Below, in pieces: positions 5,508 through 58,172 of a stretch of DNA of 64,000 nucleotides (its first letter is position 1; each line of letters opens with the position of its first letter). The stretch is taken from NCBI GenBank assembly GCA_027030065.1, contig JALVFK010000132.1, positions 8,977-72,976 on the forward strand, given 5' to 3'. The notes below the pieces were generated by a model, which saw nothing but the letters and a program-made list of their open reading frames with translations, had not been told where the DNA came from and did no database searches. This stretch comes from Desulfurococcales archaeon. GTDB lineage: Archaea; Thermoproteota; Thermoprotei_A; Sulfolobales; WANQ01. Both the position numbers and the translations under genes were made by a program.

Positions 5508-6071
5508 GTGTACTACATGAACTACACATCTTCAAAAATAGTAGGAATACTAGCATTAACCATACTATTAGCATCACTAGCGACAGCATACGCAATGTGG
5601 GCAGAGACGCTAAGGATAAACGTAACAATCAATACGGGTGAAGTAGATGTAGAGTGGAGTGATTGGGCATGCAGTGACAGAGGACCAGACCCGCAAGCTC
5701 CAGGTTTCAATAACAGTGAGGGTAAAGACGTAGCATCATGCTATGTAGAACCAGAGATCTACGACGATGAAGGCGATGTAATAAAACTAAACGTAACAAT
5801 AACCAATGCCTATCCAGGATATAATCCAGAGTTCAAATTCCTAGTAGACAATATTGGCACCATACCAGTAAAACTATTAAACTACACAATAGAGGGCGTA
5901 AATACTACAGCATTAAATGTAAGCATGATAATACCTGACGACACCCAGATACACGCAGGAGAAGACCTAACAATCGGTATGGATGTAGAAGTACTACAAG
6001 CAGCTCAAGAGAATGCAACATACACATTCGAAATAACACTAGTGTTCGCGCAGTGGAACGAGGTACCCTAA
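5508..6071 (+). CDS. Secreted TasA/camelysin(M73)-like beta-sandwich protein, paralogue 1
   Basis: Signal segment ending LATAYA|MWAE, then LRINVTINTGEVDVEW, DNIGTIPVKL, and a C-terminal ...ITLVFAQWNEVP. This is the same architecture as B. subtilis TasA (ASGTLDL ... ENNGSL ... FEATQWNG). The likely real start is ATG 5517. Confidence 0.65.
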   Translation: MYYMNYTSSKIVGILALTILLASLATAYAMWAETLRINVTINTGEVDVEWSDWACSDRGPDPQAPGFNNSEGKDVASCYVEPEIYDDEGDVIKLNVTITNAYPGYNPEFKFLVDNIGTIPVKLLNYTIEGVNTTALNVSMIIPDDTQIHAGEDLTIGMDVEVLQAAQENATYTFEITLVFAQWNEVP

Positions 6072-6085
6072 CGATAACCTAAGAC

Positions 6086-6754: not shown

Positions 6755-7033
6755 GAATACAACTAGGTCATCAAAACAAAATAGATAAAATAGAATAATA
6801 TGGTAGGAGGCCGAGCAATTTTTAGCTCCGTGTCTACAAAATATTTTTTCAAATACTAGTCCCATAATTTTGTTAATAATTGTATTGCAATCATAGTAAT
6901 AGAGTATAGTCTTGAACGTTAATATACTATGCCGTAAACTGTATTTTTGTTCTATAGAAATTCTCCCACACCCCCATATACTCTAACTACACTACTCATA
7001 TATAGCGTAGAGTAAAAGCGGTGCAATAAAGAA

Positions 7034-14619: not shown

Positions 14620-15350
14620 TGTCTTTGCGTAGAATATACTTTATTAGATATACACTGATGTTATCGGTGTATATTTTATTATTTATTTTAGTAGCCTTTA
14701 ACTTTGAAATAGAACTTAATAGAATGCTTTTCATTTATGGCACACTAGCAATAGTTCTAATTAATATAAGGATTTTGCATCCTAGGCTAGGAAACTTTAT
14801 TGTCCTCCCCATTATATCCTATACTATAACGTTATTATTAGTTTATGTAGGGATTATAGGATTTAGCATCTCTCTCGGAGTAATTTATGCTATACTTTTC
14901 ACTGGTATGATATTATTGAATGGATTGCCCGCTGGCCTTGATAATATGTTGAAAAAGATATTTGAGACAGGAAAAGTAGATGCAGAATTACCGTTTATGT
15001 GGATGTTATTGTTTATTGCCTATATGTTCTCGTTTCTTTCGGAAGCCAGTATGATTACAGATTACGTGTATTATTTAATATACGTTATTGCTGGCCCGTT
15101 AGTTGAGGGACTTCTTATAAGCTCCGACTACTATAGTAAGGCTATGAAAGGGAATAATTGTATCTGTTCAAGAATATTATTTATTAATGCCTTATATATT
15201 ACACTAATATTTTATCCTAACCTATTATACATGATTATCAGCATTATCGGTAATTTATCTAAAATTATATTAGGTTTTAAGAAGGGTTTAGTTATCGACT
15301 ATGTTGCTAGAACACTAATAGTAACAAAAACATTATTAGGTGTCCTTTAG
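14616..15350 (+). CDS. Polytopic membrane protein, unknown family
   Basis: 244-aa hydrophobic ORF. Its start overlaps the archaeosortase stop (GTGATG). Confidence 0.5.
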   Translation: MMSLRRIYFIRYTLMLSVYILLFILVAFNFEIELNRMLFIYGTLAIVLINIRILHPRLGNFIVLPIISYTITLLLVYVGIIGFSISLGVIYAILFTGMILLNGLPAGLDNMLKKIFETGKVDAELPFMWMLLFIAYMFSFLSEASMITDYVYYLIYVIAGPLVEGLLISSDYYSKAMKGNNCICSRILFINALYITLIFYPNLLYMIISIIGNLSKIILGFKKGLVIDYVARTLIVTKTLLGVL

Positions 15351-15352
15351 AC

Positions 15353-16060
15353 ATGAATAGAACTCTAATGGTGCTAGCGATAAATGTACTGTTTGGAAGT
15401 ATTATATCGTTAATTCTATCAATTACTGTAATTAATTCAACAGAACTACGAATAGCTAGTGTTTCATTTCTCCTAGTAGGTATGGTTATGTTACCAATAG
15501 GCTTAGGTGTTGAAAGCGAAATTAACAGAATACGGCAAATAGAAGCAGAAGCATTTAAGCAGAATATTAAAAGAATACTAGAAGAATTCCTAATATACGA
15601 TAAGAGGATGTATATTTGTCCGTCAGCAATGTGTAAAACAACCTCGATTCTACTACCAATAGGTGAAGTAAATGTTAAATACATGGTACCTGCAAATAGG
15701 TTCATTACCGTTTATAAGGATAAACTCATGATAATGCTTGAAACTCCAGGGCAGAGAATGTTAAGAAAACTATTAGAGGAAGTAAGAGAAACAATTGATT
15801 TAAATACATTAAACAGTCTAGTCAAAGATTTATCAACAGTATTATTGGGATCAACAGTTGAAATATCTATAGCGAAGCAAGGTAATAGATATAGTATATC
15901 CGTTAATAAAGTAGATAGTAAAGTAGGAGAGTTTGAGTCTTGGATCATTTTAGCAGGTCTCATCGGATCTATAGTAGCTGAAGCATTAAGAAAACCAATT
16001 CTACTGGATAATTACGTATATGAGCATGGTACGTTAAGTATGGAGTTGATCGAGATATGA
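15353..16060 (+). CDS. Membrane-anchored protein (2 N-terminal TM plus ~170-aa soluble domain), unknown family
   Basis: 235-aa ORF starting 2 nt after the previous stop. No recognisable motif. Confidence 0.45.
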   Translation: MNRTLMVLAINVLFGSIISLILSITVINSTELRIASVSFLLVGMVMLPIGLGVESEINRIRQIEAEAFKQNIKRILEEFLIYDKRMYICPSAMCKTTSILLPIGEVNVKYMVPANRFITVYKDKLMIMLETPGQRMLRKLLEEVRETIDLNTLNSLVKDLSTVLLGSTVEISIAKQGNRYSISVNKVDSKVGEFESWIILAGLIGSIVAEALRKPILLDNYVYEHGTLSMELIEI

Positions 16061-16338
16061 AGGTCTTAGAAACTTCTCTGAAAGAGTATAAACTACTGAT
16101 ATATTATTCAATAATAGCTGCTATGATAAATATAGGGTTATCTTTATTTGGTGAATGGCGAGTAGATATATATGTTGCACTACAAATACTAGCATTCATA
16201 ATGTTACGTTTTACTATGGCCCCGTTTCACCCGACGGTAGAAAAATATCTCGGTAAGATAAGTACCATACTATTAATTGTTTTAATAGTAATAATTATGT
16301 TCAGAGTACTTACTGTGGTGGGAATACTTGGTATCTAG
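16057..16338 (+). CDS. Small membrane protein (3 TM)
   Basis: 93-aa hydrophobic ORF with an ATGA overlap with the upstream gene. Confidence 0.4.
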   Translation: MKVLETSLKEYKLLIYYSIIAAMINIGLSLFGEWRVDIYVALQILAFIMLRFTMAPFHPTVEKYLGKISTILLIVLIVIIMFRVLTVVGILGI

Positions 16339-18409
16339 AAGTGTTGTTATAATAATGATTGTAGTACTAATAGTGGCTATTTCCGATGCTCCAATTAGTA
16401 TGGCAACACTAATAGAAAACCCTCATGTGGATCCAGATAAGATAGAGGAAAGACTTGATCCGATAAGCCTTGTAATAATATACATTAATGTACTAAGAGG
16501 TTTAAGCGACCTAAATTTAAACGAATCGCTAATCCATGTAGATATTCTAAAAAATGCTTCAGTACCATACGATATACGATTAGTAATGAATAAATTAAAC
16601 GAACTCATTAGCGAACTTGCGTTGTTAATAAATAATACAGTATACGAACTTAATAAAACAGAAGAATATTTAGAAGAAAATAATATAGTAGAAGCAAATA
16701 AATCAATAAGTAAGGCAGCACTCTATCTATTTAAGGCTAATGCTACACTTAACGAACTTCTTTCGGCGTGGTACGAGTTTAAAAGACATCTATCAATGTA
16801 TGTTGTACATGAATACAGACCTAGGTTCTTAGAATATACTGTTCAACTAGAACTATTATTTAAGAGATTAGATAGGCTACTTAATAAGCTATATGAATTA
16901 AAACAAGATCTAGAGACAAAAATTGTAGTGTCTACGATAGTGTCTCCGAACAAAATTAACACTTCTATAACTATATATTATTATAATCAGAGTATACACC
17001 CGGGTGGAATATTAGTATTAAACGGTTCTCTCATAAGTGAGGAAGGCATACCCTTAGCAAATAAAAGGCTGAGAATATATGTATATGTACAAAATAAAAG
17101 ATTAATAGAAAAAGAAGTCTTCACTAATAGCCAAGGAATATTCTATGCTAACATAACAATGCCACAGACTTATTATTTATGGAGGGCTATGAAGCCAGGT
17201 CTCGTTAAATTTAATTCGTCTATCTACGTAGTGTACACACCTCTAACTCAAGATAATTACTCTGGATCTCATGTAATATTAAACACCACGTATTACTACT
17301 ATAGGAGCAAGTTAAAGGTTATAGGTAAGACCACAGCCTATGTAGGCTCAAATCTAACATATAAAATTAAGATACTGCCTCCTAATGTAGCAATTAATAG
17401 GACATTGAGGATTTTCCTAGATAGTAAAAACATAGCTAATATATCACTACCATTAGCTAGTAGTTATCGTACAATAAAGATAAAGTTACCGTCAAATATA
17501 TCAATAGGCCAACACTTCATAAATATAACATTACTCGGTTATAAACAGTTTTCACTCGATTCTATAAGACTTCCAATAATAGTTCAACATATACCGATAT
17601 ATGTTAGTGTAAGTTATCCTCAAACAATAGTCTACCCTATACAGAGGCTACGAATCAATGGTAGTATCACGGACTATTATGGTGAGCCTGTTGTAAATGC
17701 TACTATTATCGTGGGTGATGAGAGAGCATTTACTAACATTAACGGTTCTTTTAATATGTCTATTTCTATTACAAGCATCAATATTATTGGCGGTCTAGTA
17801 GTGTTAAATTTAACAGTAAAACCAGTAGAGCCCTGGTATCCCGTAGTAAATAAGACATTAAGGATTAACTATATTAATCTATACACAATAGTTGGTATAA
17901 CTTCATATATAGCCATTGCTATAATTATTGCTCCGACACTCGTAAAGATAAATATTTACAAGAGGTCAAGGGTAGAGAAAAAAGCAATAAAGATAAGCAA
18001 AATGCTAAGAGGCCCTAAACTAGCAACCATAGGCGAGGAAGAAAAAATACCGGGTAATATTCTGGAAAGAATGCTAGCTAAAAGAAAGGCAAGCATATCA
18101 ATTAGTGAGACAGCTCTAAAAATGATTAAACTAGAATATAGGTTAAAGAGAAATATCATTGTAGATAAACTACTAGAAATGCTCTTAGTACTAGGTACAA
18201 AATACTCAAAGCCTTTATCTTCGGAGACGTTGAGAGAATATGTATTAAGGATAAGTAGAGATATGCCAAGACAAATCGCTGAAAAAGTAAGCCTCATAAT
18301 AACCCTTGTTGAAAAAGAACTATACTCTAAGACAGAACTTGCTCTAGATGAAAAAAGAAAATTAATGACGCTGATAGAGGAGGTTATAGACTATGTACGT
18401 AGAATATAA
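16328..18409 (+). CDS. Large surface protein: signal/anchor, coiled-coil region, beta-rich repeats, TM helix, DUF4129-like cytoplasmic tail
   Basis: N-terminal hydrophobic segment and many N-x-S/T sequons. ITDYYGEPVVNATIIVGDERAFTNINGSF is a carboxypeptidase-regulatory-like strand pattern. TM helix IVGITSYIAIAIIIAPTLV. Tail ...ETLREYVLRISRDMPRQIAEKVSLIITLVEKELYS resembles DUF4129. Confidence 0.5.
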   Translation: MVSRSVVIIMIVVLIVAISDAPISMATLIENPHVDPDKIEERLDPISLVIIYINVLRGLSDLNLNESLIHVDILKNASVPYDIRLVMNKLNELISELALLINNTVYELNKTEEYLEENNIVEANKSISKAALYLFKANATLNELLSAWYEFKRHLSMYVVHEYRPRFLEYTVQLELLFKRLDRLLNKLYELKQDLETKIVVSTIVSPNKINTSITIYYYNQSIHPGGILVLNGSLISEEGIPLANKRLRIYVYVQNKRLIEKEVFTNSQGIFYANITMPQTYYLWRAMKPGLVKFNSSIYVVYTPLTQDNYSGSHVILNTTYYYYRSKLKVIGKTTAYVGSNLTYKIKILPPNVAINRTLRIFLDSKNIANISLPLASSYRTIKIKLPSNISIGQHFINITLLGYKQFSLDSIRLPIIVQHIPIYVSVSYPQTIVYPIQRLRINGSITDYYGEPVVNATIIVGDERAFTNINGSFNMSISITSINIIGGLVVLNLTVKPVEPWYPVVNKTLRINYINLYTIVGITSYIAIAIIIAPTLVKINIYKRSRVEKKAIKISKMLRGPKLATIGEEEKIPGNILERMLAKRKASISISETALKMIKLEYRLKRNIIVDKLLEMLLVLGTKYSKPLSSETLREYVLRISRDMPRQIAEKVSLIITLVEKELYSKTELALDEKRKLMTLIEEVIDYVRRI

Positions 18410-19301
18410 ATGGGTTCTCTTGTTATCAATCGTACTATTATCTCTGGCATCATATCTCTTAATCTATTATCCATCAACAATGAATTTCTATGTGGAGAAT
18501 CCGTTCTGGAATGGTTATAAAGATTTTGTCAACTTATTTAATGCAACACCTATCCTAACAAGGTTTGACTTTGTAAGAATACTTAACCATATATCTTTGA
18601 GCAATCTATCATCTAAAAGCAAAGTATTAGTTACGATATCCTATGAGAACTATACAGATCAAGAAGTAAAACTCCTAAATAAATTTATAATTAATGGTGG
18701 TACATTAATAGTATTAAACGATTTCTCATCAGCAGGAAATCAGTTATTAAATAAATTAGACATAGGAGTATATTTCAACATCTCTGGTATCCTAATAGAT
18801 CCTTTATACTATTATAAGGATCCTCACTTACCAAAAGTAGAAGCAAAAGAAAATAATACAACATACACTATAATTCTCAATTATGCGTCTATAATTGAAG
18901 GAGATATAAGTAGAAACGAAATACTCATACGCTCTTCGAGATTTTCTTATTTCGATGTGGATAATAGTAGTTCGTGGAGTCCGGAGGAACCCACAGGTCC
19001 TTTCATAGTAGGTGTTGTTAAGAAATTGGGTGCTGGAAAAATAATTATAATAAGTGACCCAAGCATTTGGTTAAATGCAATGCTTAATATTGGAGATAAT
19101 TATGTTTTTGCTAAAACGTTACTAGACGGAAAAACAATATATCTAGATCAGGTACATATACCTAAGAGTACACAAGAACAATTGAGAGAAAGAATAATAT
19201 ATCTTATATCGCTGCTAAACTCTTATGGTATAGCCCCATTAATAATAGCAGTGTTTACTCTAATTATCTATAGGCTATTTTTAGGTGTAAAACAGCGATG
19301 A
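18393..19301 (+). CDS. DUF4350-like protein (N- and C-terminal TM anchors)
   Basis: LLNKFIINGGTLIVLNDFSSAGNQLL and KIIIISDPSIWLNAMLNIGDNYVFAKTLL match the DUF4350 pattern seen in MoxR-associated clusters. Confidence 0.55.
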   Translation: MYVEYKWVLLLSIVLLSLASYLLIYYPSTMNFYVENPFWNGYKDFVNLFNATPILTRFDFVRILNHISLSNLSSKSKVLVTISYENYTDQEVKLLNKFIINGGTLIVLNDFSSAGNQLLNKLDIGVYFNISGILIDPLYYYKDPHLPKVEAKENNTTYTIILNYASIIEGDISRNEILIRSSRFSYFDVDNSSSWSPEEPTGPFIVGVVKKLGAGKIIIISDPSIWLNAMLNIGDNYVFAKTLLDGKTIYLDQVHIPKSTQEQLRERIIYLISLLNSYGIAPLIIAVFTLIIYRLFLGVKQR

Positions 19302-20881
19302 TACTTGACCCGAAATCACTTAGTAGAATAGCAGTATCTTCTATAATATTAATTATATTATCATTAGTAGTATACATATCGGTAACTAAGAATATTCTAG
19401 AAAACCTATCTATTATATCAATAGTAATATTACTAATATTTTACTTAAAAATAAATCATCCCTCATATGCTGGTTTAATACTCCATGCAATAATGTTGTT
19501 TTCTGTGGGATTAATTCCTATAGGATACCTAATGCCCTATCTACTATTATCGTTGTTTATGTCTATATCATTCATTCTCTATGTTTTTGCGTTTTCGAAT
19601 ACATTGACAATAGATATAAATAAATGGCCTACATCCTCCCTAATAATATTGATAACTAGTTTTCTTGGATTTATACTGGCGTTCATTAATATTCGGGTTA
19701 CTATTACATCAATATTATTGTTGTCAGCGATTTTGGTAGTAGGTAGTATAATATATTTAGGATTGAATAGAGGGATACAAGTAATAAAATCTTTTCAAGT
19801 AAGTATGCTTGAAGGAGAAAGAGTTGAAAAAGATATATTGTTTTCAAATAAATTAATAATACCTATCCACATTATAACAAATGTTAGGAATGGTAATGGT
19901 GTAAGCATAAAGATACCAAGAATAAGAGTAGAACCTGGAGAAACTGTTAGAATACCAGTTATAATAGATGCCTCGGAAACCGGTATTTATGATATATATC
20001 TAGACTTCTTTATCGAGGATATATTTCATCTAACAAGGCTTTATAAAAGTGTAAAAGCGACCATAAAAATAATGCCCAAGATAAAAACGGCCCTTCTGGC
20101 AGCACACAAGCTCCTTGCCCGCATACCTAGCGAGATATTGGAGCATGCTGATACAAAGAGCATAGGGGAAGTAGAATTAGTGCCCAAGATTTTATCTTCG
20201 AGAAGAGGAGAATACTATGGTGCACGTCAATATGTTCCAGGTGATGATCTAAGCCAGATACACTGGAAAAAATCATTGTCTAAGGGTATACTAATATCTA
20301 AAGAGATGAAGAAAACTCATTCTTATTCCATAGCTATACTTGTTGATCTAACAAGCTCTAGTAATAGAGACTTTACAGAAATACTTTACAAGACGCTAAC
20401 ATCTCTAATTCTAATATCACTCAAAGACCCTTTACGTGTAGTAACATTAGCGCTATATGATATGGAAAACATATACCTTGTTGTTAGAAACTATTCTGCA
20501 GCCAAAGCTCTAAATAGTTTAACAAAAATAGTTGAAGAGGGAGGAATAGGAACTCATAGAGTATACAAGAAGGTCTTAGATAAGCCAATGATTTTGCCCA
20601 TATTATCATCAAATAATGAAAAACTAAAGGCGTTGTACGAGGTTTTAGTAGATAGTATTAGAGAGAAATATGTGTGGAAAATAATTGCTGAAGTACTGAG
20701 AGGTTTTGAAGGACGAAATATCCAGATAATACATGGTCAAAGCAGTATTAGTGATCTATATTATTATGTTAAGTTATTGTTGCGAAAGAAGGGGTATATA
20801 CTAGAAGAACCAGTTGAGATAAGTCCTAGATCCTTATATGAAAAAGCAGTAACCGAACCAATAGGATTACTTGCCCACTAA
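19298..20881 (+). CDS. DUF58-family protein with N-terminal multi-TM domain
   Basis: GEYYGARQYVPGDDLSQIHWKKSLSKGILISKE is the DUF58 signature, followed by a VWA-like region (IAILVDLTSS). Confidence 0.75.
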   Translation: MILDPKSLSRIAVSSIILIILSLVVYISVTKNILENLSIISIVILLIFYLKINHPSYAGLILHAIMLFSVGLIPIGYLMPYLLLSLFMSISFILYVFAFSNTLTIDINKWPTSSLIILITSFLGFILAFINIRVTITSILLLSAILVVGSIIYLGLNRGIQVIKSFQVSMLEGERVEKDILFSNKLIIPIHIITNVRNGNGVSIKIPRIRVEPGETVRIPVIIDASETGIYDIYLDFFIEDIFHLTRLYKSVKATIKIMPKIKTALLAAHKLLARIPSEILEHADTKSIGEVELVPKILSSRRGEYYGARQYVPGDDLSQIHWKKSLSKGILISKEMKKTHSYSIAILVDLTSSSNRDFTEILYKTLTSLILISLKDPLRVVTLALYDMENIYLVVRNYSAAKALNSLTKIVEEGGIGTHRVYKKVLDKPMILPILSSNNEKLKALYEVLVDSIREKYVWKIIAEVLRGFEGRNIQIIHGQSSISDLYYYVKLLLRKKGYILEEPVEISPRSLYEKAVTEPIGLLAH

Positions 20882-39826: not shown

Positions 39827-40490
39827 TTTAATGGTTAAGACTATTGTAGTTGAAGATTTGTGGAAAACATATCGTTTAAGGAATCTAGTAATACAAGTAT
39901 TAAGAGGTATTTCCTTCAACGTAGAGGATCAAACCGTAACATGCATTATCGGTCCGAATGGAGCGGGAAAGACGACTCTTCTCAAAATAATAGCTGGCTT
40001 CATAGAAGCTGATAGAGGAAAAGTATTGGTGTTTGGTAAGAGTCCCCGAGACGCGAGTATAAGGAGACTAATAGGCTATATGCCTCAAGAGGATATATTG
40101 TTCGATTCTCTTACATTTGCTGAACATTTAGAGTTATTAAAGAATACAAGGGAGGGGATTATAGTAGACTTAGAATTCGTTTACAGCCTTTTAGAAAAAG
40201 TGGGATTAAATAAAGTACTACAGTTAAACATTGGTAAACTTAGTGGAGGACAACGTAGACTGATGCAGATGATTTTAACTATCTCACATAAACCCGAAAT
40301 AATATTACTTGATGAACCAATAGCTTTTGTAGATAAAGAGAACAGAGAGACTATACTGGAGATCATACGCAAACTTGTTGATGAAAATGGTTCTACAATA
40401 CTAATTGCATCTCATGACCCGTATGCGTGCTCCATAGCTAATAGAGTACTTGAGCTACGTGATGGTTTAATTAAAGAGGTTAAGGTTTAG
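39813..40490 (+). CDS. ABC transporter ATP-binding protein
   Basis: Walker A GPNGAGKTT, signature LSGGQRRL, Walker B ILLDEP, H-loop ASHD. Confidence 0.9.
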   Translation: MFIGDLMVKTIVVEDLWKTYRLRNLVIQVLRGISFNVEDQTVTCIIGPNGAGKTTLLKIIAGFIEADRGKVLVFGKSPRDASIRRLIGYMPQEDILFDSLTFAEHLELLKNTREGIIVDLEFVYSLLEKVGLNKVLQLNIGKLSGGQRRLMQMILTISHKPEIILLDEPIAFVDKENRETILEIIRKLVDENGSTILIASHDPYACSIANRVLELRDGLIKEVKV

Positions 40491-41442
40491 GAGGTTCTAT
40501 TTTCTTCAAAGCCTCGTCAACGATATCCTCAACTCTAGCTCCTTCTAGCTCGGCTTCAGGTTTAAGTTTTATTCTATGGATTAATACTTCCTTTGCAAAG
40601 CGTTTTACATCATCGGGTATTACATAGTCTCTATTCTTTAGAAAGGCATAGGCTCTAGCAGCCTTATATAACGCTATAGAGGCTCTTGGACTAGGTCCTA
40701 ATAGGACGTATTCGTGGCTACGTAAGTAGCTTATAATATTCATTATATAGTTTAAGATGTTATCATCAACATAAACTGTCTGCTTTATAATCCTTATTAA
40801 ATGAGCTATTTCATCAGTTGTAGTAACCGCTTCTATTGGTAATTCTTCAATATAGTCTATTTTCTTTAAGATCTCTACTTCTTCACGTGGATCTGGATAA
40901 TCACTCCATATACGTAGCATGAACCTATCAACTTGTACCTCGGCTAAGGGGTATATCCCGGTTCCAAGTGTTAATGGTATCTGAGTTGCAATTATCATAA
41001 ACGGGTAGGGTAGCTTGTGTACAATACCGTCTATTGTTACTTGGCGTTCCTGCATAGCCTCGAGTAGTGCAGCTTGAGTTCTCGGTGTCGCTCTGTTAAG
41101 TTCATCAGCGACCACTATATTTGCAAATACCGGGCCAGGCCTAAATATTGATTCACCATGTATTGTGTAAACATAGTATCCCGTAACGTCTGTTGGTAGA
41201 ACATCCGGTGTGAACTGAATTCTCTTATACTCGCCCCTAATGGTTCTAGCCAATGATTTAGCTAATAGTGTTTTCGCTGTACCAGGGTAACCTTCTATTA
41301 ATACGTGTCCTTCACTAAGTAATGCTACAAGAAGGCTTTCTATTAAATCATTTTTTCCTACTACAACCTTTTTGAGTTCTCTTACTATTTTTATCGGTAC
41401 TTCACTGAGATCATCCTTATCCTTATAAGAGATACTCGACAC
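40480..41442 (-). CDS. MoxR-family AAA+ ATPase (solitary)
   Basis: GYPGTAKT (Walker A), [37 protein letters not shown] start preceded by gaggag. Confidence 0.9.
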   Translation of the reverse strand: MSSISYKDKDDLSEVPIKIVRELKKVVVGKNDLIESLLVALLSEGHVLIEGYPGTAKTLLAKSLARTIRGEYKRIQFTPDVLPTDVTGYYVYTIHGESIFRPGPVFANIVVADELNRATPRTQAALLEAMQERQVTIDGIVHKLPYPFMIIATQIPLTLGTGIYPLAEVQVDRFMLRIWSDYPDPREEVEILKKIDYIEELPIEAVTTTDEIAHLIRIIKQTVYVDDNILNYIMNIISYLRSHEYVLLGPSPRASIALYKAARAYAFLKNRDYVIPDDVKRFAKEVLIHRIKLKPEAELEGARVEDIVDEALKKIEPPKP

Positions 41443-44684: not shown

Positions 44685-45320
44685 ATGGAAGTGCTATCTA
44701 AGAGTAGTCTAACTAAACCGCTAATACTGTTAGTGTTATTGGCTCCAGTTGCTTCAGCGGTTACTTTGATAGCGTATTGGGTTTATATTAGTAATTGGCA
44801 GGGAGAGGAGTGGTGGTTTGCTCCATTAGAGGTTAATGCTACGTATAATGCTACGTCGCTACGTGTTGGTCAAGTACTAAATATAACCATTACTGCAAGA
44901 TATCCTTTGCCTTGGGAGTACTTGAATATAACGCCTTCGAGTTATACTATTAGTGGCCCCTACTATGATCCTGTGAATGAGTACTGGTATTATAATGGAA
45001 CGTTTTATCCTAATAGTACTGCTCAAGCTAATGGTTGGTGGTATAATTTCACAGTGCCTAAGAACATGTCCTTCAAGGTCATTGTAGCAGTATACTATGT
45101 TCAGAGCGGCGCCAACATGTTGTATTGGTATGGTACTATAAATGATTCCATAGAGTTCAATGAGACGAAGACTCTTGGAAGCTTTGCTATAAGACTAGTG
45201 TTGGCCGGAAACTATGTTGTAAAAGTCTTCGTGTGGACTGATTATCCAAGCAAGGCTACAACGCTTTGGGCACCACTTGTAGTGACTCCTCCAAAACAAA
45301 TCATAATTGTAACGGGGTGA
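44685..45320 (+). CDS. Secreted, sequon-rich protein of unknown family
   Basis: N-terminal hydrophobic segment, at least 10 N-x-S/T sequons, Trp/Tyr-rich. Confidence 0.5.
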   Translation: MEVLSKSSLTKPLILLVLLAPVASAVTLIAYWVYISNWQGEEWWFAPLEVNATYNATSLRVGQVLNITITARYPLPWEYLNITPSSYTISGPYYDPVNEYWYYNGTFYPNSTAQANGWWYNFTVPKNMSFKVIVAVYYVQSGANMLYWYGTINDSIEFNETKTLGSFAIRLVLAGNYVVKVFVWTDYPSKATTLWAPLVVTPPKQIIIVTG

Positions 45321-45324: not shown

Positions 45325-46311
45325 GTGTTGAGGAAGGCTGTCTTCATGTTATTAATAATATTACCACTATTACTAGCTCCTTTATCATCGGCACTTCAAG
45401 TAAAGGTTGAGATAGAACAGCTAGGTTACATTAAGATGTATATTTACGATATAGCGCCAGGGAGTATAGTTGGAGTAGAGATAAGATATAATGGGAGCAT
45501 AATATGGCTTGACCAGCAAATAGCTAATGCTAGTGGAGTAGCCGAAACATCCTTCTACGTTCCACCCTATGTGCCACAGGGCGAGATACTTAATGTTACG
45601 ATAGCGGTTGTGAGTCCCGGCGACACCTATGCCGACTACATAAACTTTTACCTAGTAGCAGTAGGGCCAAAATACTATACGATAACTCTATTATCAACAA
45701 CTACCCAAACCCAGACAGTAACAAGTACCGTTACTGAGACTACAACAGAGACAACAACAACTACCGAGACCACGACACAGACAGAAACAGTTACTGAAAC
45801 CCAAACAGTAACCACTACAGCCGTAGTTACTGAAACCCAGACTCTAACCAAGACCTACACAACCACACAAGTATCAACAACTACCACTACAACAGAAGTC
45901 CCAGTAACAACAACTGTAGTCGTAACTAGTCCAACCACAACAACCCTAACAATCACAAACACTACCACCGTGACAACAGAGATACCGGTCACTGAGACAC
46001 TAACACTTACAACAACTTATACTACTACAACTGAGAAGACTATTACATCAACTATCCAGGTACCCGTAACAAAGGTTGAGACACAAACCCTAACATATAC
46101 AACAACTATACCAACAACTATAACGAGTACGACAACACTTGCTAAGACGACTACGGTATCAACAACTTATACTACAGTATCACCAACAACACTCACAGAG
46201 ACCGCTACGATAACCCAGCAAGTAACACCTGGATGGGCTTGGGGAGCAATAGTGGTAGCAGTTATTGGTCTCGCATTAGCTGGCTTCTTCGCGTTTAGAA
46301 CAAAATCCTAG
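45325..46311 (+). CDS. Surface protein: signal peptide, ~100-aa globular domain, ~180-aa Thr-rich stalk, C-terminal PGW-TM-basic tripartite signal
   Basis: C-terminus ...QQVTPGWAWGAIVVAVIGLALAGFFAFRTKS. The stalk is dominated by T-x-T repeats. Confidence 0.6.
   Translation: MLRKAVFMLLIILPLLLAPLSSALQVKVEIEQLGYIKMYIYDIAPGSIVGVEIRYNGSIIWLDQQIANASGVAETSFYVPPYVPQGEILNVTIAVVSPGDTYADYINFYLVAVGPKYYTITLLSTTTQTQTVTSTVTETTTETTTTTETTTQTETVTETQTVTTTAVVTETQTLTKTYTTTQVSTTTTTTEVPVTTTVVVTSPTTTTLTITNTTTVTTEIPVTETLTLTTTYTTTTEKTITSTIQVPVTKVETQTLTYTTTIPTTITSTTTLAKTTTVSTTYTTVSPTTLTETATITQQVTPGWAWGAIVVAVIGLALAGFFAFRTKS
45688..46227 (+). repeat. Thr-codon (ACN) low-complexity coding region
   Basis: In-frame runs of aca/act/acc/acg alternating with gta/gag/cag codons. 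There is no fixed repeat unit. Confidence 0.7.
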
Positions 46312-46327: not shown

Positions 46328-49300
46328 ATGCGCGTCCACAAGATCATAATAATATTATTCACACTAGTAATATTATTGAACGTATTCACACCAATAACAG
46401 CTCTAGCAACAGTCTCTACTAGAAAACCAGTAATCCAGGAACAAGAAAAACAACCACTACAACCAGTAGTAAAGCAACCACTACTACATCAAGACATTGT
46501 AGCAGTAAAGAAAACGGAGAACAATATACAAGGAGTCATAGTACAAACACCTAGTACAATTAAACAGGAGGACTTGAAGCTTATACAACAATTAGATCCA
46601 AACCTATTCAATATAGAGTTCCTTAAGAAAACCTATGGTGATAAGCTAAGAGTATTCGTAAAATATAAGGATAATGAGTCGCTAGATACTCTTAAGCAAA
46701 TAGTAGAGAAACTAGGCGGTAGAATAACATACGAGTACCCCATAATAAATACAGTACTAGTAATAATACCAATGGATAAAAGAGAAGCATTCATACAAGA
46801 AGCATCAGACCTCATAAAGAAGACAATAGTAGAAGCAGTAACCCTAGACTACCCACGGAAGCCAGCCCTAGACACAAGCACTCAGCTAATAGGAGCACAA
46901 ACAGCATGGAATCTAGGATACAATGGAAGTGGAGTAATAGTAGGAGTCCTCGATACTGGTATAGATCCATTCCACCCAGACTTCTACTTCCCCAACGGGA
47001 CAAGTAAGATTCTAGCCAATGTAAGCTTCGTAGACTACGACTTCGATAATATACCAGATATGGATGTATTAGACAATGTTGGCCACGGAACACATGTAGC
47101 CAGCACTATAGCGGGAACAGGTATAGCGGAAGTATATGCGCATAGTGGTGAATATGCATGGCATTCCGTGACAAGATGGATGCCCTTCGGGTACGCTTTC
47201 GGTAACCCCAATGGCTGGGAGAACATCCTAGTATACTGGTTCAACGTTACTGGCCACGATAACATTACACTAAGCTTCTGGGACTCATTACATATCAACC
47301 CATTATGGTACTATGCTTACGGCTATGATGACGAGGCCATGATACTATACAGTTATGATGGTGGTAATTGGAGTGTACTAGATGTATTCAATGTAACTAC
47401 AAGAGACACTATAAACACTTCATGGATGTACCACGAGTATACGATCAATACCAGTGGGCAGACCCAGCTCTTCATAATGTTCGCATATATTGCATACATA
47501 GCAATAGAGCAGACAGGATGGTGGATAGATGATATCAGTGTACCAGAACTAAACTTTACCGACAACCTAGAGTCGGGGCAGCCAACATATATACCGGGTG
47601 TAGGAGGGCATGTCTACGACGATAACGGATGGTTTGTAGTCCGTGGAAGATTTACTGGTGTTGCTCCTGGAGCAGAACTATTGATAGGTAGGGTATGTGA
47701 TACAAGCAGTTGTTGGACAAGTTGGATAATGAATGGAATGATATGGGCAGCTATCTACGGTGCCGATGGAGTACCGTTATCTGGTGATGAAGCAGACGTA
47801 ATAAGCATGAGCCTTGGAGGACCAGCTAGCTATTATGACCCCGAAGCACAACTAGTAGACGTATTGACAAAATACTATGGAGTAACCTTCGTCATAGCAG
47901 CAGGTAATAGTGGTTACAACGGCCCATATACGGTCGGGTCGCCAGGCATAGCCTTTTCAGCAATAACTGTAGCGGCTGCACAGAAACCAGTTGATGATCT
48001 ACCACCAGATATAGTGTACTTTAGTAGTAGAGGCCCCACACTAACGAACCTAATAGTGAAACCTGATGTAGCCGCACCAGGTGTCGCAATAATAGCAGCA
48101 TTATCTCAGTATTGGGGCTACAGTCCATACTGGGATCTAGATCCATACTATACCATAATGAGCGGTACCTCTATGGCAACACCCCATGTTAGCGGTGCAG
48201 TAGCGGTAATCAAGAGCGCTCACCCCGATTGGGATACCTGGATGATAAAGTCTGCGCTAATGAGTACTGCTACATGGCTAGACTATAGAAGATACAGTAG
48301 CTGGTATCCGCCAACACCAGCAACAGTATACGAGCAGGGCGGAGGATTCATAAACGTTACAGCAGCAATACAAGCTCAAGCATTACCAATTAATGCTAGC
48401 CTAAGCTTCCAAGTAGTAAAGATAGGCAGCAACAAGACATTGAGTTTCCTAGTAAAAGTATTGAATCCAAACATAACGAGTCTATCTATAATAAACGATA
48501 CAGTAAGATATATAGAATATGCTAAGTATGGTTCAGACTACTATGTAGCAAACGTTACACCATACACAGGCTGGTTATCGTACAATATAGTACAAGTGAA
48601 CTCAACATTATACAATGTATCAGTAACATTAAGCGTACCTAGTAATGCTACTGGAGGACTATATGATGGTATAATATGGCTTAATGCTAGTGGCTATGTA
48701 TTCCACGTAGTACTCGGCTTTATAGCATCACCAATAAAGCTCGTAGGACGAGCCATAGACTTTGTGAACGACACGGCTCTACCGAACATAACAGTACTAG
48801 TAATAAATACCTCATATAGTATTTACTCATGGGATGTAACAAATAGCTCTGGGTACTTTGAAGTAATGGTGCCAGTTGACGAGCCAGTATTCCTATATGC
48901 TTATGATCGAAACGATAACTACTACATATACTATGGCAGATTCATGTTATTCCTACCACCATTCGCTGAACTAGACCCATACATGCTATACATGACCCCC
49001 AGATGGGGCTACGCCGATAGGCACGTACTAGTTGTGGCAGACGACTTCTACGGATACTATTATCCACCAAACCTCTCGATATTCCTAAGCTTCAACAATA
49101 GCTACGGCTTCATAATGAGGGAATGGTACGAGTCATTACAAGGCATACCAGTAGACCCCATACTATGGAGTGATGACTTCCCATTTGTAGTATGGTCTAG
49201 CTGTACTTCATGGTATGCGGTAGTACCGCCAGACGATTACATACTACAAGTGTTTACTCAAAACTATGCTGGTAAACTATTAATTGAGGGTGAGGATATA

Positions 49301-49951
49301 GGATGGTTCCACAAAGCAGTACTAAACGACACGTTCCTAGAGGACGTATTACACGCAGTATGGCTAGCAGATAGTAGTGGAGTCTACAATATAACACCAG
49401 TAGCAATAGGCCACTTGTTAACAGCTAATCTATCGGGCAATATATCAATAGGACACGTACCATGGCCTGACGCAATAGCACCATACAATGGCTCACAAGC
49501 AGCATTCAACTATAGCGGTACTTCAATGTCAGCAATAATATACTACTATAACAAGGACAACATATTAGCTGAGGGCAAAATAGTATATGCAGCCTTCCCA
49601 CTAGTCAATGTAACTATAACAGAGAGGCAGCAGATAATAAAGAACTCACTACTATGGCTATTACTATTTGCGGAGACGAGGATAAGTGCTACACAGACAA
49701 CACCAGCCGGAGACTACAAGTTAAACGGTACAATTACTAGCGGGGTCCTCGGATTATACACCGTAGCCTACAAGCTCTCAACAACTAAACCTGTGGTCAA
49801 GATAGCGAAGCCCATGATCATAACACCTGGTACAACACTACCCTTCGACTTTGAGGCAAAGAGGCCCTGGTGGGTTGCAAACCCAGTTACGGCAGAAATA
49901 GAGGTATACTATAACGGCTGGCTACTATTCAGCTTCCCGGTACAAACATAG
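46328..49951 (+). CDS. Pyrolysin-like subtilisin-family (S8) serine protease, 1207 aa
   Basis: VGVLDTGID (Asp, ~46947-46967), GHGTHVAS (His codon 47084-47086), AAGNSG, SGTSMATPHVSG (Ser codon 48170-48172). It has an N-terminal signal, a large insert between His and Asn, and a ~590-aa C-terminal extension rich in sequons. Confidence 0.9.
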   Translation: MRVHKIIIILFTLVILLNVFTPITALATVSTRKPVIQEQEKQPLQPVVKQPLLHQDIVAVKKTENNIQGVIVQTPSTIKQEDLKLIQQLDPNLFNIEFLKKTYGDKLRVFVKYKDNESLDTLKQIVEKLGGRITYEYPIINTVLVIIPMDKREAFIQEASDLIKKTIVEAVTLDYPRKPALDTSTQLIGAQTAWNLGYNGSGVIVGVLDTGIDPFHPDFYFPNGTSKILANVSFVDYDFDNIPDMDVLDNVGHGTHVASTIAGTGIAEVYAHSGEYAWHSVTRWMPFGYAFGNPNGWENILVYWFNVTGHDNITLSFWDSLHINPLWYYAYGYDDEAMILYSYDGGNWSVLDVFNVTTRDTINTSWMYHEYTINTSGQTQLFIMFAYIAYIAIEQTGWWIDDISVPELNFTDNLESGQPTYIPGVGGHVYDDNGWFVVRGRFTGVAPGAELLIGRVCDTSSCWTSWIMNGMIWAAIYGADGVPLSGDEADVISMSLGGPASYYDPEAQLVDVLTKYYGVTFVIAAGNSGYNGPYTVGSPGIAFSAITVAAAQKPVDDLPPDIVYFSSRGPTLTNLIVKPDVAAPGVAIIAALSQYWGYSPYWDLDPYYTIMSGTSMATPHVSGAVAVIKSAHPDWDTWMIKSALMSTATWLDYRRYSSWYPPTPATVYEQGGGFINVTAAIQAQALPINASLSFQVVKIGSNKTLSFLVKVLNPNITSLSIINDTVRYIEYAKYGSDYYVANVTPYTGWLSYNIVQVNSTLYNVSVTLSVPSNATGGLYDGIIWLNASGYVFHVVLGFIASPIKLVGRAIDFVNDTALPNITVLVINTSYSIYSWDVTNSSGYFEVMVPVDEPVFLYAYDRNDNYYIYYGRFMLFLPPFAELDPYMLYMTPRWGYADRHVLVVADDFYGYYYPPNLSIFLSFNNSYGFIMREWYESLQGIPVDPILWSDDFPFVVWSSCTSWYAVVPPDDYILQVFTQNYAGKLLIEGEDIGWFHKAVLNDTFLEDVLHAVWLADSSGVYNITPVAIGHLLTANLSGNISIGHVPWPDAIAPYNGSQAAFNYSGTSMSAIIYYYNKDNILAEGKIVYAAFPLVNVTITERQQIIKNSLLWLLLFAETRISATQTTPAGDYKLNGTITSGVLGLYTVAYKLSTTKPVVKIAKPMIITPGTTLPFDFEAKRPWWVANPVTAEIEVYYNGWLLFSFPVQT

Positions 49952-54757: not shown

Positions 54758-55494
54758 ATAGGAGAACCCTTCTATTATTCCTTTTATCTTTACCAGTATT
54801 GTTGCTGTGGATTCATACATCCTTAGTCATTTCATTAACAGTTAATGGGTTAATTAGAGTAATAGTAGGCTTTATAATCATGGCTGTGATATGGGGGGTT
54901 AAGAAGTACTGGGATATTGATTACGTCTTATCACTTATTATTGTATTCTTTGTATCAGGTATTTTAGCACAGCTTGGAATAGGTTTATTCATAGAATCCT
55001 TTATGCTAGTACTTCCACTAATCTTAGTGTTAATAATGTTCCACTATAGAAGTATGATATTAGTCTTCCTCGTACCAACCCTAATATATATCTATACTCT
55101 ATTATCATCTTATGCCGCTACGATAGGGTTATCTTATAGAGCGCCATTAGCGTCTCTCTCGATAGCTGCAAGTATAGGGAGACTTGTTCTCACGGGCAAG
55201 ATTCCGATAACAGTATCCTATGAACCAGTGCCTGGGTTAACGGTATTGTATGCTATCAGTATTATATCGTTAGTTTTCTTGGTAATAGACATGAAGAATA
55301 TTAGGGAGGCTGGTGCCCCCGCACTTGAGGATGCTATACGAATTCTAGTATTGGCTTTGCTTGCTTCCCTAATGCTAGTTTATGCGGTATTAATTATTAC
55401 GCGGGTATACATTGTAATGTGGTCTATAACGGTTACGGCTATATTTATAATATCATTCCTAGCATATAGGCTACTAGCTAGGGATACCCGTTGA
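54754..55494 (+). CDS. Polytopic membrane protein, unknown family
   Basis: 246-aa hydrophobic ORF with ATGA-type overlaps on both sides. Confidence 0.45.
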   Translation: MNRRTLLLFLLSLPVLLLWIHTSLVISLTVNGLIRVIVGFIIMAVIWGVKKYWDIDYVLSLIIVFFVSGILAQLGIGLFIESFMLVLPLILVLIMFHYRSMILVFLVPTLIYIYTLLSSYAATIGLSYRAPLASLSIAASIGRLVLTGKIPITVSYEPVPGLTVLYAISIISLVFLVIDMKNIREAGAPALEDAIRILVLALLASLMLVYAVLIITRVYIVMWSITVTAIFIISFLAYRLLARDTR

Positions 55495-57242
55495 GACTAC
55501 CGCTTCGTCTCCAACGTTATAGGAAGAAACTAGTATTAGCCATAGTTATAGTCTTATCGATAGGTTATTTTGCATACGGATTATATTATGTGATTACTAG
55601 TGGACTTGTGGCTGGCGAAGCAAGATACGTTAGTGATGAATGCTGGTATGTATCTGCAGCTCGTAACCTATTGAGAAAAGTTTTTGGCCTAGAACCAAAC
55701 TCTTGTATGGGCAATCTATGTTACGCATCAATATTCGTAAACTCGCTAGAGGACGCGAACAAAGTAAAAGAATTCGTTACAAGTCATGGTGGAGTTATAG
55801 TAAAGGACAACTATGCTCACAAGGTCTTAGCCGGATACGACTACACTATTGCTGTAAAGGCACCTCGAAAGGTATTGACCGAGCTCGCTAGAAACTATAC
55901 TGTAATAATAGGTTACCCCTACCCAGACTGGGATGATGTAGCCAACTATTTGAACCTTGAGCACCCACCTCTCATGAAATATATTGTAATGATTACATTA
56001 CTTGTATCAGATAACCCAGTTGCCTGGAAGATACCGAGTCTCATAGCTGGCTCCCTTATAGTATTCTTTGCATACCTTATTGCGAGAAAAGTGTTCAATG
56101 AGGCTGCCGGACTTCTTGCAGCAGTAATAGTTTTCATAGAACCCGTTACCAGGGCTATGAGCATGGTTGCAATGCTTGACATATATGTTGCATTATTCTC
56201 CATCATAGCATTATATTTCGCAGTCAAGTCGAAGTACATGCATACTGGCATAATGGTGGGACTAGCTGGATCGGTTAAAATGAACGGATTCTATCATGTT
56301 CTCAGTACTATAATATCAGCTTGGCGTAACCGGAAAGTGAGTAATATAAAATTGTTCGTGTATGCTATAGTTATACCCCTCCTAGTATATCTTGTAGTAA
56401 ATATACCCTTGATAATATATGAAGGGGGAATTATGAAATGGATAGACCTACAGCTCTGGGCTCTAAGCTGGCACACACAGTCAAGACCCCCCGGTGGTCC
56501 TCCAGTAGCAAATCCCTGGGACTGGTTTCTAGCGCGAAACTCTTTCCCACTAAATTATAATCCCGACCTAGTAGCTAATCCTAGCCCACCCTTAATGTTA
56601 TTGACCATACCCTTAACTATTGTATTGATTCCACTTGCGTGGAAGGAGAAGCTTAAGGGATCTGGCAGTATTCTAGCGTGGTTTTGGGTGCCAATAGTGA
56701 TGTTTACTGCATTATTCTTAATAGGTAATAGGACACAATATAGTTTCTACTCAGTACAGATTACACCTATTGCAGCAATAATAGTTTCCTCAACAGTATT
56801 CTTTGTATATCGCAGAGATCTACTATATGAGTCGCTATTATCGTACAGATTCGAGCAACCCTATCGCATAGGGTTAATGCTCCTAATAGGCATATCATTA
56901 TGGCTTACAGCATCATACTTAATCACAAGTCTCATAGGTATAATAGTTGCCTCAATATTGCTGGGATTATTTGTAGCTTTGGGTAGAACCAGGTTCAAAA
57001 TCACGATTATGATAGGTGTTGGAGCTGGTGTATTAGCACCACTAATAGTATACTATTACTATTGGATCAATGCGTCTACGGAGACAGTTAGGTATCTTGA
57101 GATAATGTTCCCATATAATATGATACCCGTTATAGCTTCTGCTATCGCTACAACTGCTTCAGCGATGATATTCACTCTAATACTAGCTCCAAGAAAGCGT
57201 GGAGAATACATTGAGGAAGAGGTAGAACATTGGGGAGAATAG
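55491..57242 (+). CDS. GT-C glycosyltransferase of the PMT/ArnT (GT39/83-like) type
   Basis: Loop-1 DE motif (VSDECWY, nt 55635-55640) and EHPPLMKY (nt 55962-55973). More than 10 TM helices. Confidence 0.65.
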   Translation: MRLPLRLQRYRKKLVLAIVIVLSIGYFAYGLYYVITSGLVAGEARYVSDECWYVSAARNLLRKVFGLEPNSCMGNLCYASIFVNSLEDANKVKEFVTSHGGVIVKDNYAHKVLAGYDYTIAVKAPRKVLTELARNYTVIIGYPYPDWDDVANYLNLEHPPLMKYIVMITLLVSDNPVAWKIPSLIAGSLIVFFAYLIARKVFNEAAGLLAAVIVFIEPVTRAMSMVAMLDIYVALFSIIALYFAVKSKYMHTGIMVGLAGSVKMNGFYHVLSTIISAWRNRKVSNIKLFVYAIVIPLLVYLVVNIPLIIYEGGIMKWIDLQLWALSWHTQSRPPGGPPVANPWDWFLARNSFPLNYNPDLVANPSPPLMLLTIPLTIVLIPLAWKEKLKGSGSILAWFWVPIVMFTALFLIGNRTQYSFYSVQITPIAAIIVSSTVFFVYRRDLLYESLLSYRFEQPYRIGLMLLIGISLWLTASYLITSLIGIIVASILLGLFVALGRTRFKITIMIGVGAGVLAPLIVYYYYWINASTETVRYLEIMFPYNMIPVIASAIATTASAMIFTLILAPRKRGEYIEEEVEHWGE

Positions 57243-57365: not shown

Positions 57366-58172
57366 ATGTATCTTGGAACAAGGATAACCCCAATAATAGT
57401 AATGGTTATTGTAATAGGCGTGGCTGTAGGAGGAGTAGTATTATACAATTACTTGGCGTCACAGAGTAACACTATAACAACGACTCTTACCGAGACAATA
57501 ACTGTAACAAAGTATTCAACAATAACTATAACAGCGGGTAGCAATGTTACAAGCACTGCTACATTGGTGAAAACTACTACGGCTACAGTAACAACTACCA
57601 TACCAGTAACAATAATAAGTACAGTAACGGTTACTACTCTTCCACCACAGCCTCCTAAGACAACCACTACGACGACTCCCGGAGAGATAAGAGGTGAGAA
57701 CTTTACGGTGGGTAACGTGCAAGTATACTCTATTACGACATCTCTTGGATTAATTGATGCGAAGACGCCGAAACCGATGGTACTATTAAAGATACCGAAG
57801 AATACAGCCATGGAGGACATAATGAATAGATTAAACCAGTTAATTGCTGAGGGTATGCAAATATCTTCAAACATAAGTGTTAGTATCCCACAAGCATATG
57901 ATCCAGCTATAGTAGTGATGCTTTCAAGAGGAACACCTTGTACAATGTATAGAGTAATAGTGAATGACGGTAATGCTAGTGATGGAAGGATCAGCTTAAC
58001 CATACAAAAGTACTCTACAGCAGACTATTGTATACAAGTCGTACCGAAAGACAATATGTATATCGGTATAATAGTATTGAGGAACCTACAGGTAGGACAA
58101 TATGTTGTTGACGTGACATTAGACTATGGTACAACTAAGACACAGTACACGCTTGATATCTCATATAGCTAA
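57366..58172 (+). CDS. N-terminally anchored surface protein with Thr-rich stalk and C-terminal globular domain
   Basis: TM helix IIVMVIVIGVAVGGVVLY, a Thr-rich stretch at nt ~57468-57687 ending PPQPPKTTTTTTPGE, then a ~160-aa domain. Confidence 0.5.
   Translation: MYLGTRITPIIVMVIVIGVAVGGVVLYNYLASQSNTITTTLTETITVTKYSTITITAGSNVTSTATLVKTTTATVTTTIPVTIISTVTVTTLPPQPPKTTTTTTPGEIRGENFTVGNVQVYSITTSLGLIDAKTPKPMVLLKIPKNTAMEDIMNRLNQLIAEGMQISSNISVSIPQAYDPAIVVMLSRGTPCTMYRVIVNDGNASDGRISLTIQKYSTADYCIQVVPKDNMYIGIIVLRNLQVGQYVVDVTLDYGTTKTQYTLDISYS

Follow-up and report, generated by a model that had tools for sequence, protein, structure and literature searches.

A threonine-rich stalk protein of a Desulfurococcales archaeon with a Pro-x-Trp-headed C-terminal helix: membrane anchor or sorting signal?

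A 64-kb stretch of DNA from an uncultivated Desulfurococcales archaeon of hot springs (contig JALVFK010000132.1; hereafter the window, whose positions serve as coordinates throughout) encodes both an enzyme of the exosortase/archaeosortase family and, on the same strand, a secreted protein that is largely a Thr-rich stalk and ends in a short motif, a hydrophobic helix and a basic tail. Is this C-terminus a sorting signal that is cut off by the enzyme, or is it an ordinary membrane anchor? According to reviews, archaeosortase-dependent anchoring is characteristic of some Euryarchaeota, with Crenarchaeota such as Sulfolobales using simple transmembrane (TM) anchors (PMC6098224). The window shows an intact exosortase-family enzyme in a Thermoprotei lineage, plus one concrete candidate substrate. 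Our preferred reading, to which we assign a probability of roughly 50%, is that the stalk protein is a type-I surface glycoprotein with an ordinary, retained C-terminal TM anchor, and this fits the evidence at least as well as processing by a sortase does.

The stalk protein and its orthologues

Read from the GTG at 45325, the open reading frame (ORF) of the stalk protein (45325–46311, + strand) encodes 328 residues, to which the residue numbers below refer, and its translation is identical to the protein quoted in the original prediction, which had proposed a new archaeosortase sorting signal from the sequence of the window. The protein begins with a canonical signal peptide (residues 1–23, 45325–45393, MLRKAVFMLLIILPLLLAPLSSA, followed by LQ), for which cleavage is predicted after SSA; A23 is invariant in our orthologue alignment (A2), and the orthologues, without exception, combine a basic n-region with a hydrophobic core and a cleavage site of the A-x-A type. 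There follow a beta-sandwich head domain of ~100 residues (residues 24–124, 45394–45696), a Thr-rich stalk of 176 residues (residues 125–300, 45697–46224, 54% Thr), the juxtamembrane element V-T-P-G-W (residues 300–304, 46222–46236; family consensus [VI]-[TI]-P-x-W), a TM helix of 20 hydrophobic residues rich in Ala and Gly (AWGAIVVAVIGLALAGFFAF, 46237–46296) and, ahead of the stop codon, the basic tail RTKS (46297–46308), whose R325 is invariant. The tripartite layout that had been proposed is thus present, with PGW at nucleotides (nt) 46228–46236 (residues 302–304), exactly 20 hydrophobic residues and RTKS, as is the Thr-rich linker said to precede the motif. Thr makes up 31% of the protein overall; the stalk is a case of compositional low complexity, and a tandem array at the DNA level was ruled out. 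In a single-sequence AlphaFold2 model, the head domain has eight strands (predicted local distance difference test score, pLDDT, 86; predicted template modelling score, pTM, 0.78), and a fold search with it returned generic Ig/C2/Fn3-like matches alone, all with E>1e-3.

The public gene call starts at ATG 45346, giving 321 aa and dropping the basic n-region of the signal peptide. We consider GTG 45325 to be better supported, because a Shine-Dalgarno (SD)-like GGTGAT lies 4–5 nt before it and every orthologue has a basic n-region. A protein with this much Thr, whose product is absent from a collection of 15 billion proteins and for which protein searches returned no homologues, might be suspected of being a spurious low-complexity frame. 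We regard this as effectively refuted by the conservation of the head, signal peptide and tail in at least five divergent lineages, and it is likewise at odds with the quality of the head model (pLDDT 86), with the tight operon spacing and with the calling of the gene by gene callers in five assemblies, where the 321-aa product is indexed on the contigs.

As the stalk protein is missing from the protein collection and its family is invisible to protein searches, we used synteny as a handle and reached its orthologues from two neighbouring genes: an S8 (subtilisin-family) protease led to four genome loci, and a gene for a 211-aa protein led to four metagenome loci. Stalk orthologues were found directly downstream of a homologue of the 211-aa gene in L009, L011, L012, L016, L018 and, as a truncated and therefore partial sequence, L017. 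Their tails read QQVTPGW-AWGA[I/V]VVAVIGLALAGFFAF-RTKS in the window and L009, QQVIPDW-VWIVVGVSVVVAISAGALAV-RYYSAKR in L011, REIIPTW-ATVTIGVLAVIAIVAGVIAA-RYLTARS in L012 and L016, and VQVTPPW-AYAVMGVLAVIIAILAVLYV-RASQRRT in L018. P302 and W304 are invariant across these four divergent tails, with G, D, T or P as the middle residue. The spacing from W to R is exactly 20 residues in 4/4 distinct tails, and the Arg right after the helix is invariant; the basic residues beyond it are dispersed and unclustered (RTKS, RYYSAKR, RYLTARS, RASQRRT). Pro, Trp and the 20-residue spacing hold down to ~30% identity of the neighbouring gene.

Judged from these aligned tails, the conserved element is [VI]-[TI]-P-x-W, exactly 20 residues and Arg, and the Gly of PGW lies outside it. 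PGW itself, which had been put forward as the signature, did not hold up as a conserved motif, since the orthologues carry PDW, PTW and PPW in its place. Its occurrence in a single sequence was in any case no measure of chance, as whatever tripeptide preceded the TM helix would have been picked. Alignment A2 comprises four sequences, to which the fifth tail (L018) was aligned by hand, and as about one third of all A2 columns are invariant, the conservation of Pro and Trp is suggestive and falls short of being statistically decisive. The claim that the tail lies outside the known sorting-signal motifs was confirmed, in that no curated model reaches its threshold: PGF_CTERM (TIGR04126) reached 12.1 of the 24.5 bits required and PEP-CTERM (PF07589) 12.3 of 20.7, and both alignments are confined to the hydrophobic part.

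In the more distant orthologues of L018 (1733–3109) and L017 (1187–2209), head and Thr-rich stalk are separated by a further domain, which in L018 is barely over the Pfam cutoff for ZU5 (22.3 bits vs 21).

The tail as a membrane anchor

Three properties of the tail speak for a plain anchor, namely that every carrier found belongs to one family, that it has two invariant signature residues and that its basic residues are dispersed. A helix-breaking Pro and an interfacial Trp are also expected to be conserved in an ordinary single-pass anchor. Sulfolobales are without archaeosortases, and 24 of their secreted proteins (S-layer proteins, S8 peptidases, thermopsins) end in a hydrophobic stretch and basic residues that form a membrane anchor (PMC5023256, Table S1). 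The stalk protein falls under the definition of such a bipartite anchor, in which a secreted protein ends in a hydrophobic stretch with charged residues at the very C-terminus (PMC5023256), and two of the three parts of its tail, the TM helix and the basic residues, are generic in sortase-free Crenarchaeota. The Sulfolobales anchors (AmyA, SlaB, thermopsins, S8 peptidases) resemble it further in belonging to secreted crenarchaeal proteins, in combining ~20 hydrophobic residues with basic ones and in often following a Ser/Thr-rich linker. They differ in having Ile/Val/Leu-rich helices, RRR-type clusters and no exo- or archaeosortase in the organism, whereas here the helix is Ala/Gly-rich, the basic residues are dispersed, P-x-W is conserved and a sortase-family gene is present. 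The window also encodes a 268-aa protein (57366–58172, +) with an N-terminal TM anchor, a ~75-residue Thr-rich linker and a globular C-terminal domain; as an N-anchored protein it cannot be a C-terminal sortase substrate, which argues that a Thr stalk beside a TM segment is a general design here.

If the tail is a retained anchor, a Sec signal peptide would export the ~100-residue beta-sandwich head and the ~176-residue Thr-rich stalk. The stalk is probably O-glycosylated, as its composition and a syntenic PMT-family gene (protein O-mannosyltransferase-like; described below) indicate, possibly by that PMT-family enzyme. The last 27 residues would then serve as a stop-transfer anchor, with P-x-W at the outer interface, the 20-residue helix across the membrane and Arg/Lys in the cytoplasm, and the helix would stay on the mature protein as an ordinary TM segment. 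The three-gene operon would supply the stalk protein together with its N-anchored 211-aa partner and the large secreted S8 protease, and the stalk may keep the head, and possibly the protease too, at a set distance from the membrane surface, by analogy with tetrabrachion/STABLE.

We also compared the tail with Haft's published criteria for sorting signals, which call for three or more near-invariant signature residues, basic residues in a compact cluster and several carriers per genome, the carriers being unrelated to each other outside the signal; for dedicated systems, regular adjacency to the enzyme is expected instead. The motif begins 27 residues from the C-terminus, in keeping with criterion 1, and the hydrophobic middle, with 20 residues in all orthologues and a mean Kyte-Doolittle hydropathy of 2.5, agrees with criterion 4, as do the signal peptides of all orthologues with criterion 6. 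Signature residues fall short of the three expected, with Pro and Trp invariant and, two residues before the Pro, a conservative V/I. In place of a basic cluster of 2–5 residues, mostly Arg, there is the invariant Arg after the helix, the other basic residues being scattered.

As to carriers, the stalk protein is the sole ORF with such a C-terminus in the 64-kb window, and no second family with a P-x-aromatic motif, TM helix and basic C-terminus was found in ~310 kb of related sequence (446 ORFs). All of the carriers found are orthologues that share the head and the stalk, so in the reachable data none are unrelated outside the tail. An exhaustive phmmer search with the 35-residue tail against 1.84 billion representatives gave zero matches at E≤1e-3, although such a short, TM-rich query has low power; word-indexed protein searches with the head domain or the tail also gave no matches, which carries no weight as the collection itself does not contain the stalk protein. 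With respect to adjacency, the sortase and stalk genes are near-consecutive in L011; in the window they share a strand and lie 31 kb apart, and in the short contigs L016 and L018 they are not adjacent. L009, L012 and L017 give no information on this point.

The exosortase-family enzyme and its possible link to the stalk protein

The gene at 12883–14619 (+, 578 aa), which had been taken for an archaeosortase-family gene, does encode a real member of the family: it scores 65.4 bits against PF09721 (cutoff 25.7) and 34.9 bits against TIGR04178 (cutoff 23), a signature that is matched by 7/7 family members. The enzyme alignment (A3) shows no variation at C195, part of a CSG motif, at R247, part of GNxxR, or at H268. 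A polytopic catalytic core at the N-terminus is followed by a TM helix, an ectodomain of ~150 aa and a further TM helix at the C-terminus, and an AlphaFold2 model shows a helical bundle over residues 4–292 with moderate confidence (pLDDT 64), which fits a core of roughly eight TM helices. Membership in an archaeosortase class was not borne out. The top-scoring class models are the bacterial exosortases XrtA, EpsH and XrtD, all far below cutoff (XrtA 46.9–48.5 bits vs 208), and no class-specific Art or Xrt cutoff was reached (the class models are present in NCBIfam, with the coverage of Art classes unverified); ArtE was weakly matched by one of the seven family members (E=3e-4). Going by these matches and the conserved residues, we consider the enzyme a genuine exosortase/archaeosortase-family member that is outside the named Art and Xrt classes; it is apparently active and, if so, must have some substrate.

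The enzyme family is rare. Seven relatives were found in a database of 5.8 billion clusters and one more in L011, and all of them come from uncultivated Thermoprotei or Desulfurococcales-like metagenome-assembled genomes (MAGs) or from hot-spring or vent metagenomes. Neither fold nor sequence searches returned a solved homologue of the enzyme. Its ectodomain had no EpsI or Pfam match, and its weak PsbP/DcrB/Eag-like fold matches (E about 0.02) were not relied on. A metagenome scan with the enzyme alignment gave no matches, nor did scans of viral contigs with the enzyme alignment and with the alignment of the 211-aa protein. The most distant member, P0007 (Thermoprotei MAG, DRO15_06105; L014 2733–3934), has SSG for CSG, with Ser replacing Cys, and its gene is preceded by one for an 847-aa DUF4350-DUF58 fusion protein.

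The genes that come after that of the enzyme, in the same orientation (14616–20881, +), encode a polytopic protein of 244 aa, proteins of 235 and 93 aa, a bitopic protein of 693 aa, a 302-aa DUF4350 protein and a DUF58-like protein of 527 aa. This gene order is kept in the P0001, P0002, P0004 and P0005 lineages, and a DUF58-like gene stands beside the sortase in L011, L013 (as a fragment) and L014 as well. The sortase subfamily has its most regular partners in DUF58-like and DUF4350 genes; the region also encodes an AAA ATPase of the MoxR type (40480–41442). In the window, the sortase operon is separated from the stalk module by a ~24-kb island of glycosyltransferase, DUF1616, ABC ATPase, MoxR and dTDP-rhamnose genes (20886–44517; Pfam, and collinearity with L011), which is absent at that position in L011.

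The arrangement in L011, a distant relative and a MAG labelled Pyrodictiaceae whose S8 protease is 60% identical to that of the window, supports a link between the two genes. Its sortase homologue (33% identity, E=7e-76, over core and ectodomain alike) is encoded immediately before the module, here composed of a 216-aa protein, the stalk protein and the S8 protease, on the same strand and with a gap of 143 bp. The DUF58-like gene beside this sortase matches the last gene of the sortase operon in the window, and from the module onward the two loci are collinear by blastp, with LigT-like, DtxR-like, PMT-like, 272-aa and 835-aa genes. As the ~24-kb island is what mainly sets the window apart from the otherwise collinear L011, the sortase operon and the stalk module were probably ancestral neighbours. 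The flanking housekeeping genes are also syntenic, however, so the adjacency in L011 is possibly a by-product of general synteny combined with insertion or deletion of the island.

Other proteins encoded in the sortase operon were considered as substrates and rejected. The DUF4350 protein ends in a helix and KQR, but this helix is internal in the DUF4350-DUF58 fusion of L014 and is thus not removed. In the 693-aa protein, which also has a basic cluster, the late helix is followed by a conserved cytoplasmic domain of ~130 residues; its 'EPW' (E-[PS]-W) lies 16 residues before the helix and does not abut it. With these two proteins no better, the stalk protein is the best candidate substrate in the neighbourhood of the sortase. 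In L013, a sortase with 29% identity is followed by a 150-aa bitopic protein and DUF1616 genes. The gene for the 150-aa protein (L013 1987–2439, +) starts in overlap with the stop codon of the sortase gene, and its product carries a signal peptide and, at the C-terminus, a single TM helix with a strongly basic tail (PRIYIRLWYRFHKKWLVVEK). This protein lacks both a Thr stalk and a P-x-W that abuts the helix, and is a different candidate for a dedicated substrate there.

Two known systems are the closest points of comparison for a sorting signal. With PGF-CTERM/ArtA, as known from the S-layer glycoprotein of Haloferax volcanii, the stalk protein shares a signal peptide, a Thr-rich spacer (O-glycosylated in Haloferax), a P-x-aromatic motif that abuts the helix and a basic tail, and the genome encodes a homologous Cys/Arg/His membrane enzyme. 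It departs from that system in the variable middle residue (G/D/T/P), in having Trp in place of Phe as the aromatic residue and in failing the PGF_CTERM model, as well as in an enzyme outside the Art classes, a host in Thermoproteota instead of Euryarchaeota and a single family of carriers. Bacterial PEP-CTERM/exosortase systems (EpsH, XrtA, XrtD), which belong to exopolysaccharide loci, provide the best hidden Markov model matches of the enzyme and, like the window, have glycosyltransferase genes nearby; XrtD, like the enzyme here, continues past its catalytic core with an additional extracytoplasmic domain, and targets of PEP-CTERM systems are often rich in Thr/Ser. Scores far under the class cutoffs, the lack of a PEP motif and of an Arg-rich cluster, and the archaeal host set the present case apart from these.

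It is possible, although we hold it at somewhat less than even odds, that the enzyme represents an unclassified exosortase-like subfamily of uncultivated Desulfurococcales-like Thermoprotei and that the stalk protein is its dedicated (one-to-one or few-to-one) substrate, with a new [VI]-x-P-x-W-CTERM class of signal. After Sec export and O-glycosylation, the membrane-embedded Cys/Arg/His enzyme would recognise [VI]-x-P-x-W where the helix begins, cut off the helix together with the basic tail and join the new C-terminus to a membrane lipid or a surface glycan, as for ArtA and PGF-CTERM. Several observations favour this and weigh against a retained anchor. The genome encodes an apparently active exosortase-family enzyme, its Cys195, Arg247 and His268 invariant in sequence, which should need some substrate, and the stalk protein is the sole candidate in its neighbourhood with a signal peptide, a low-complexity linker, a Pro motif abutting the TM helix and a basic tail, the other candidates in the sortase operon having been rejected. 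The sortase gene abuts the module in L011, and the two were probably neighbours ancestrally. The tail agrees with Haft's criteria 1, 4 and 6 and in part with 3 and 5; Pro, Trp and the 20-residue W-to-R spacing are fixed across the orthologues, and no spacer separates the motif from the helix, a feature shared with PEP-, PGF- and GlyGly-CTERM and typical of signals for membrane-embedded sorting enzymes. More specifically, the PGF (ArtA) and PEF (ArtC) signals are likewise P-x-aromatic motifs placed directly against the helix. A Thr-rich linker ahead of the signal is found in archaeosortase and CGP-CTERM substrates, the helix is Ala/Gly-rich like those of sorting signals and unlike the Ile/Val/Leu-rich anchors of Sulfolobus, and the enzyme and stalk families are both orphans of the same uncultivated Thermoprotei/Desulfurococcales-like lineages. 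Finally, the Haloferax S-layer glycoprotein, with its O-glycosylated Thr cluster, passed for decades as a TM-anchored protein before its ArtA/PGF processing was demonstrated, and it is mainly on account of this precedent that we do not dismiss a role for the sortase. On the other side, there are two invariant signature residues only and the basic cluster is weak, and neither the 310 kb of related loci nor the low-power phmmer search yielded a second family with the tail. Adjacency was seen in one lineage only, where housekeeping synteny may explain it, and no sortase adjoins the module in L016 or L018 (short contigs). The conserved neighbours of the sortase in four lineages are other genes, the DUF58-like and DUF4350 genes being its most regular partners, and in L013 it is followed instead by the 150-aa bitopic protein. 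Of the archaeosortase sorting signal that had been proposed, the layout and the enzyme thus stand, with the adjacency in L011 added, and against it are the two invariant residues, the single family and the generic nature of the TM and basic parts.

A quite improbable alternative is that the C-terminal helix is a temporary tether, the protein being shed by proteolysis in or near the stalk, for instance by the S8 protease, with neither sortase nor lipid transfer. A heavily glycosylated Thr-rich stalk is normally protease-resistant, and the module is without the protease in L016 and L018. The idea draws on the S8 gene lying 17 nt downstream and accompanying the stalk gene in 4/6 informative loci, and on two cases from the literature: the stalk-bound subtilisin-family protease of Staphylothermus has been proposed to cleave the tetrabrachion precursor, and Sulfolobus AmyA is mostly released to the medium, with a minor fraction bound to the membrane by its C-terminal anchor.

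Were the link to the sortase true, this would be the first sortase-type anchoring system described in Thermoproteota, to which reviews ascribe plain TM anchors, and would bring sortase-like anchoring to a second major archaeal phylum, with a new flavour of signal; it may also place a large S8 protease on the cell surface, and the pair of enzyme and substrate would be simple enough for heterologous testing. If the link is false, the locus is still of use as a negative control, as a Thr stalk, TM helix and basic tail would be insufficient for calling a sorting signal, even near a sortase gene.

Operon partners and surrounding genes

The first gene of the operon (44685–45320, +) encodes a W/Y-rich protein of 211 aa with an N-terminal hydrophobic anchor, recognised by synteny; it had no Pfam or NCBIfam match. 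It lies directly upstream of the stalk gene in 7/7 module loci, including L015 and L017, in which the stalk gene is truncated or cut off. The intergenic region upstream of it holds a TATA-like TTTAAATA and an SD-like GAGGTG. The third gene (46328–49951, +), which begins 17 nt past the stop codon of the stalk gene, encodes the secreted S8 protease (1207 aa; PF00082, 162.5 bits). It follows the stalk gene in 4 of the 6 informative loci (the window, L009, L011 and L012), the exceptions being L016 and L018.

This pairing recalls tetrabrachion/STABLE of Staphylothermus marinus, which also belongs to the Desulfurococcales lineage and also combines a membrane-anchored surface stalk with a large subtilisin-family protease. 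Tetrabrachion, a very large protein, has a four-helix coiled coil for its stalk, unlike the 176-residue Thr-rich segment of a 328-aa protein seen here, and there is no sequence homology between them. The analogy suggests that the stalk may position the S8 protease at the cell surface.

Further downstream is the PMT-family membrane protein (55491–57242, +; GT-C), which exceeds the cutoffs of both PF13231 (41.8 vs 26.1 bits) and PF02366 (35.1 vs 22.7 bits). It is 61% identical to its syntenic counterpart in L011 and is a plausible agent of O-glycosylation of the stalk. An upstream membrane protein in L018 has weak similarity to it (E=0.012 over 26 residues). The gene for the N-anchored 268-aa protein adjoins the PMT-family gene, and both are syntenic with the stalk module in L011; a fragment of a homologue of the 268-aa protein follows the stalk gene in L016. 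This grouping suggests a shared theme of O-glycosylated stalks in the region.

Two of the module loci have peculiarities of their own. L012 (QMNG01000060.1) is labelled 'candidate division Kazan bacterium', yet it carries the archaeal module, with an S8 protease 63% identical to that of the window, and the contig is probably misbinned. In L016, the tail of the stalk protein is identical to that in L012 and the start of the head domain matches, with the protease missing downstream, which indicates a recent rearrangement.

GC content is 0.31–0.36 over the tail of the sortase operon (14000–20000) and the island, against 0.39–0.42 elsewhere. Together with its absence in L011, the low GC of the island suggests a variable surface-glycan island. 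Upstream of the sortase, a cluster at 5508–9291 (+) encodes a pair of small secreted paralogues (187 and 222 aa, with 35% identity), followed by a homologue of S26/S24-like signal peptidases (412 aa) and a DUF5305 protein (345 aa). This cluster is kept upstream of the sortase in four lineages and resembles signal-peptidase-dependent clusters for fibre or matrix proteins.

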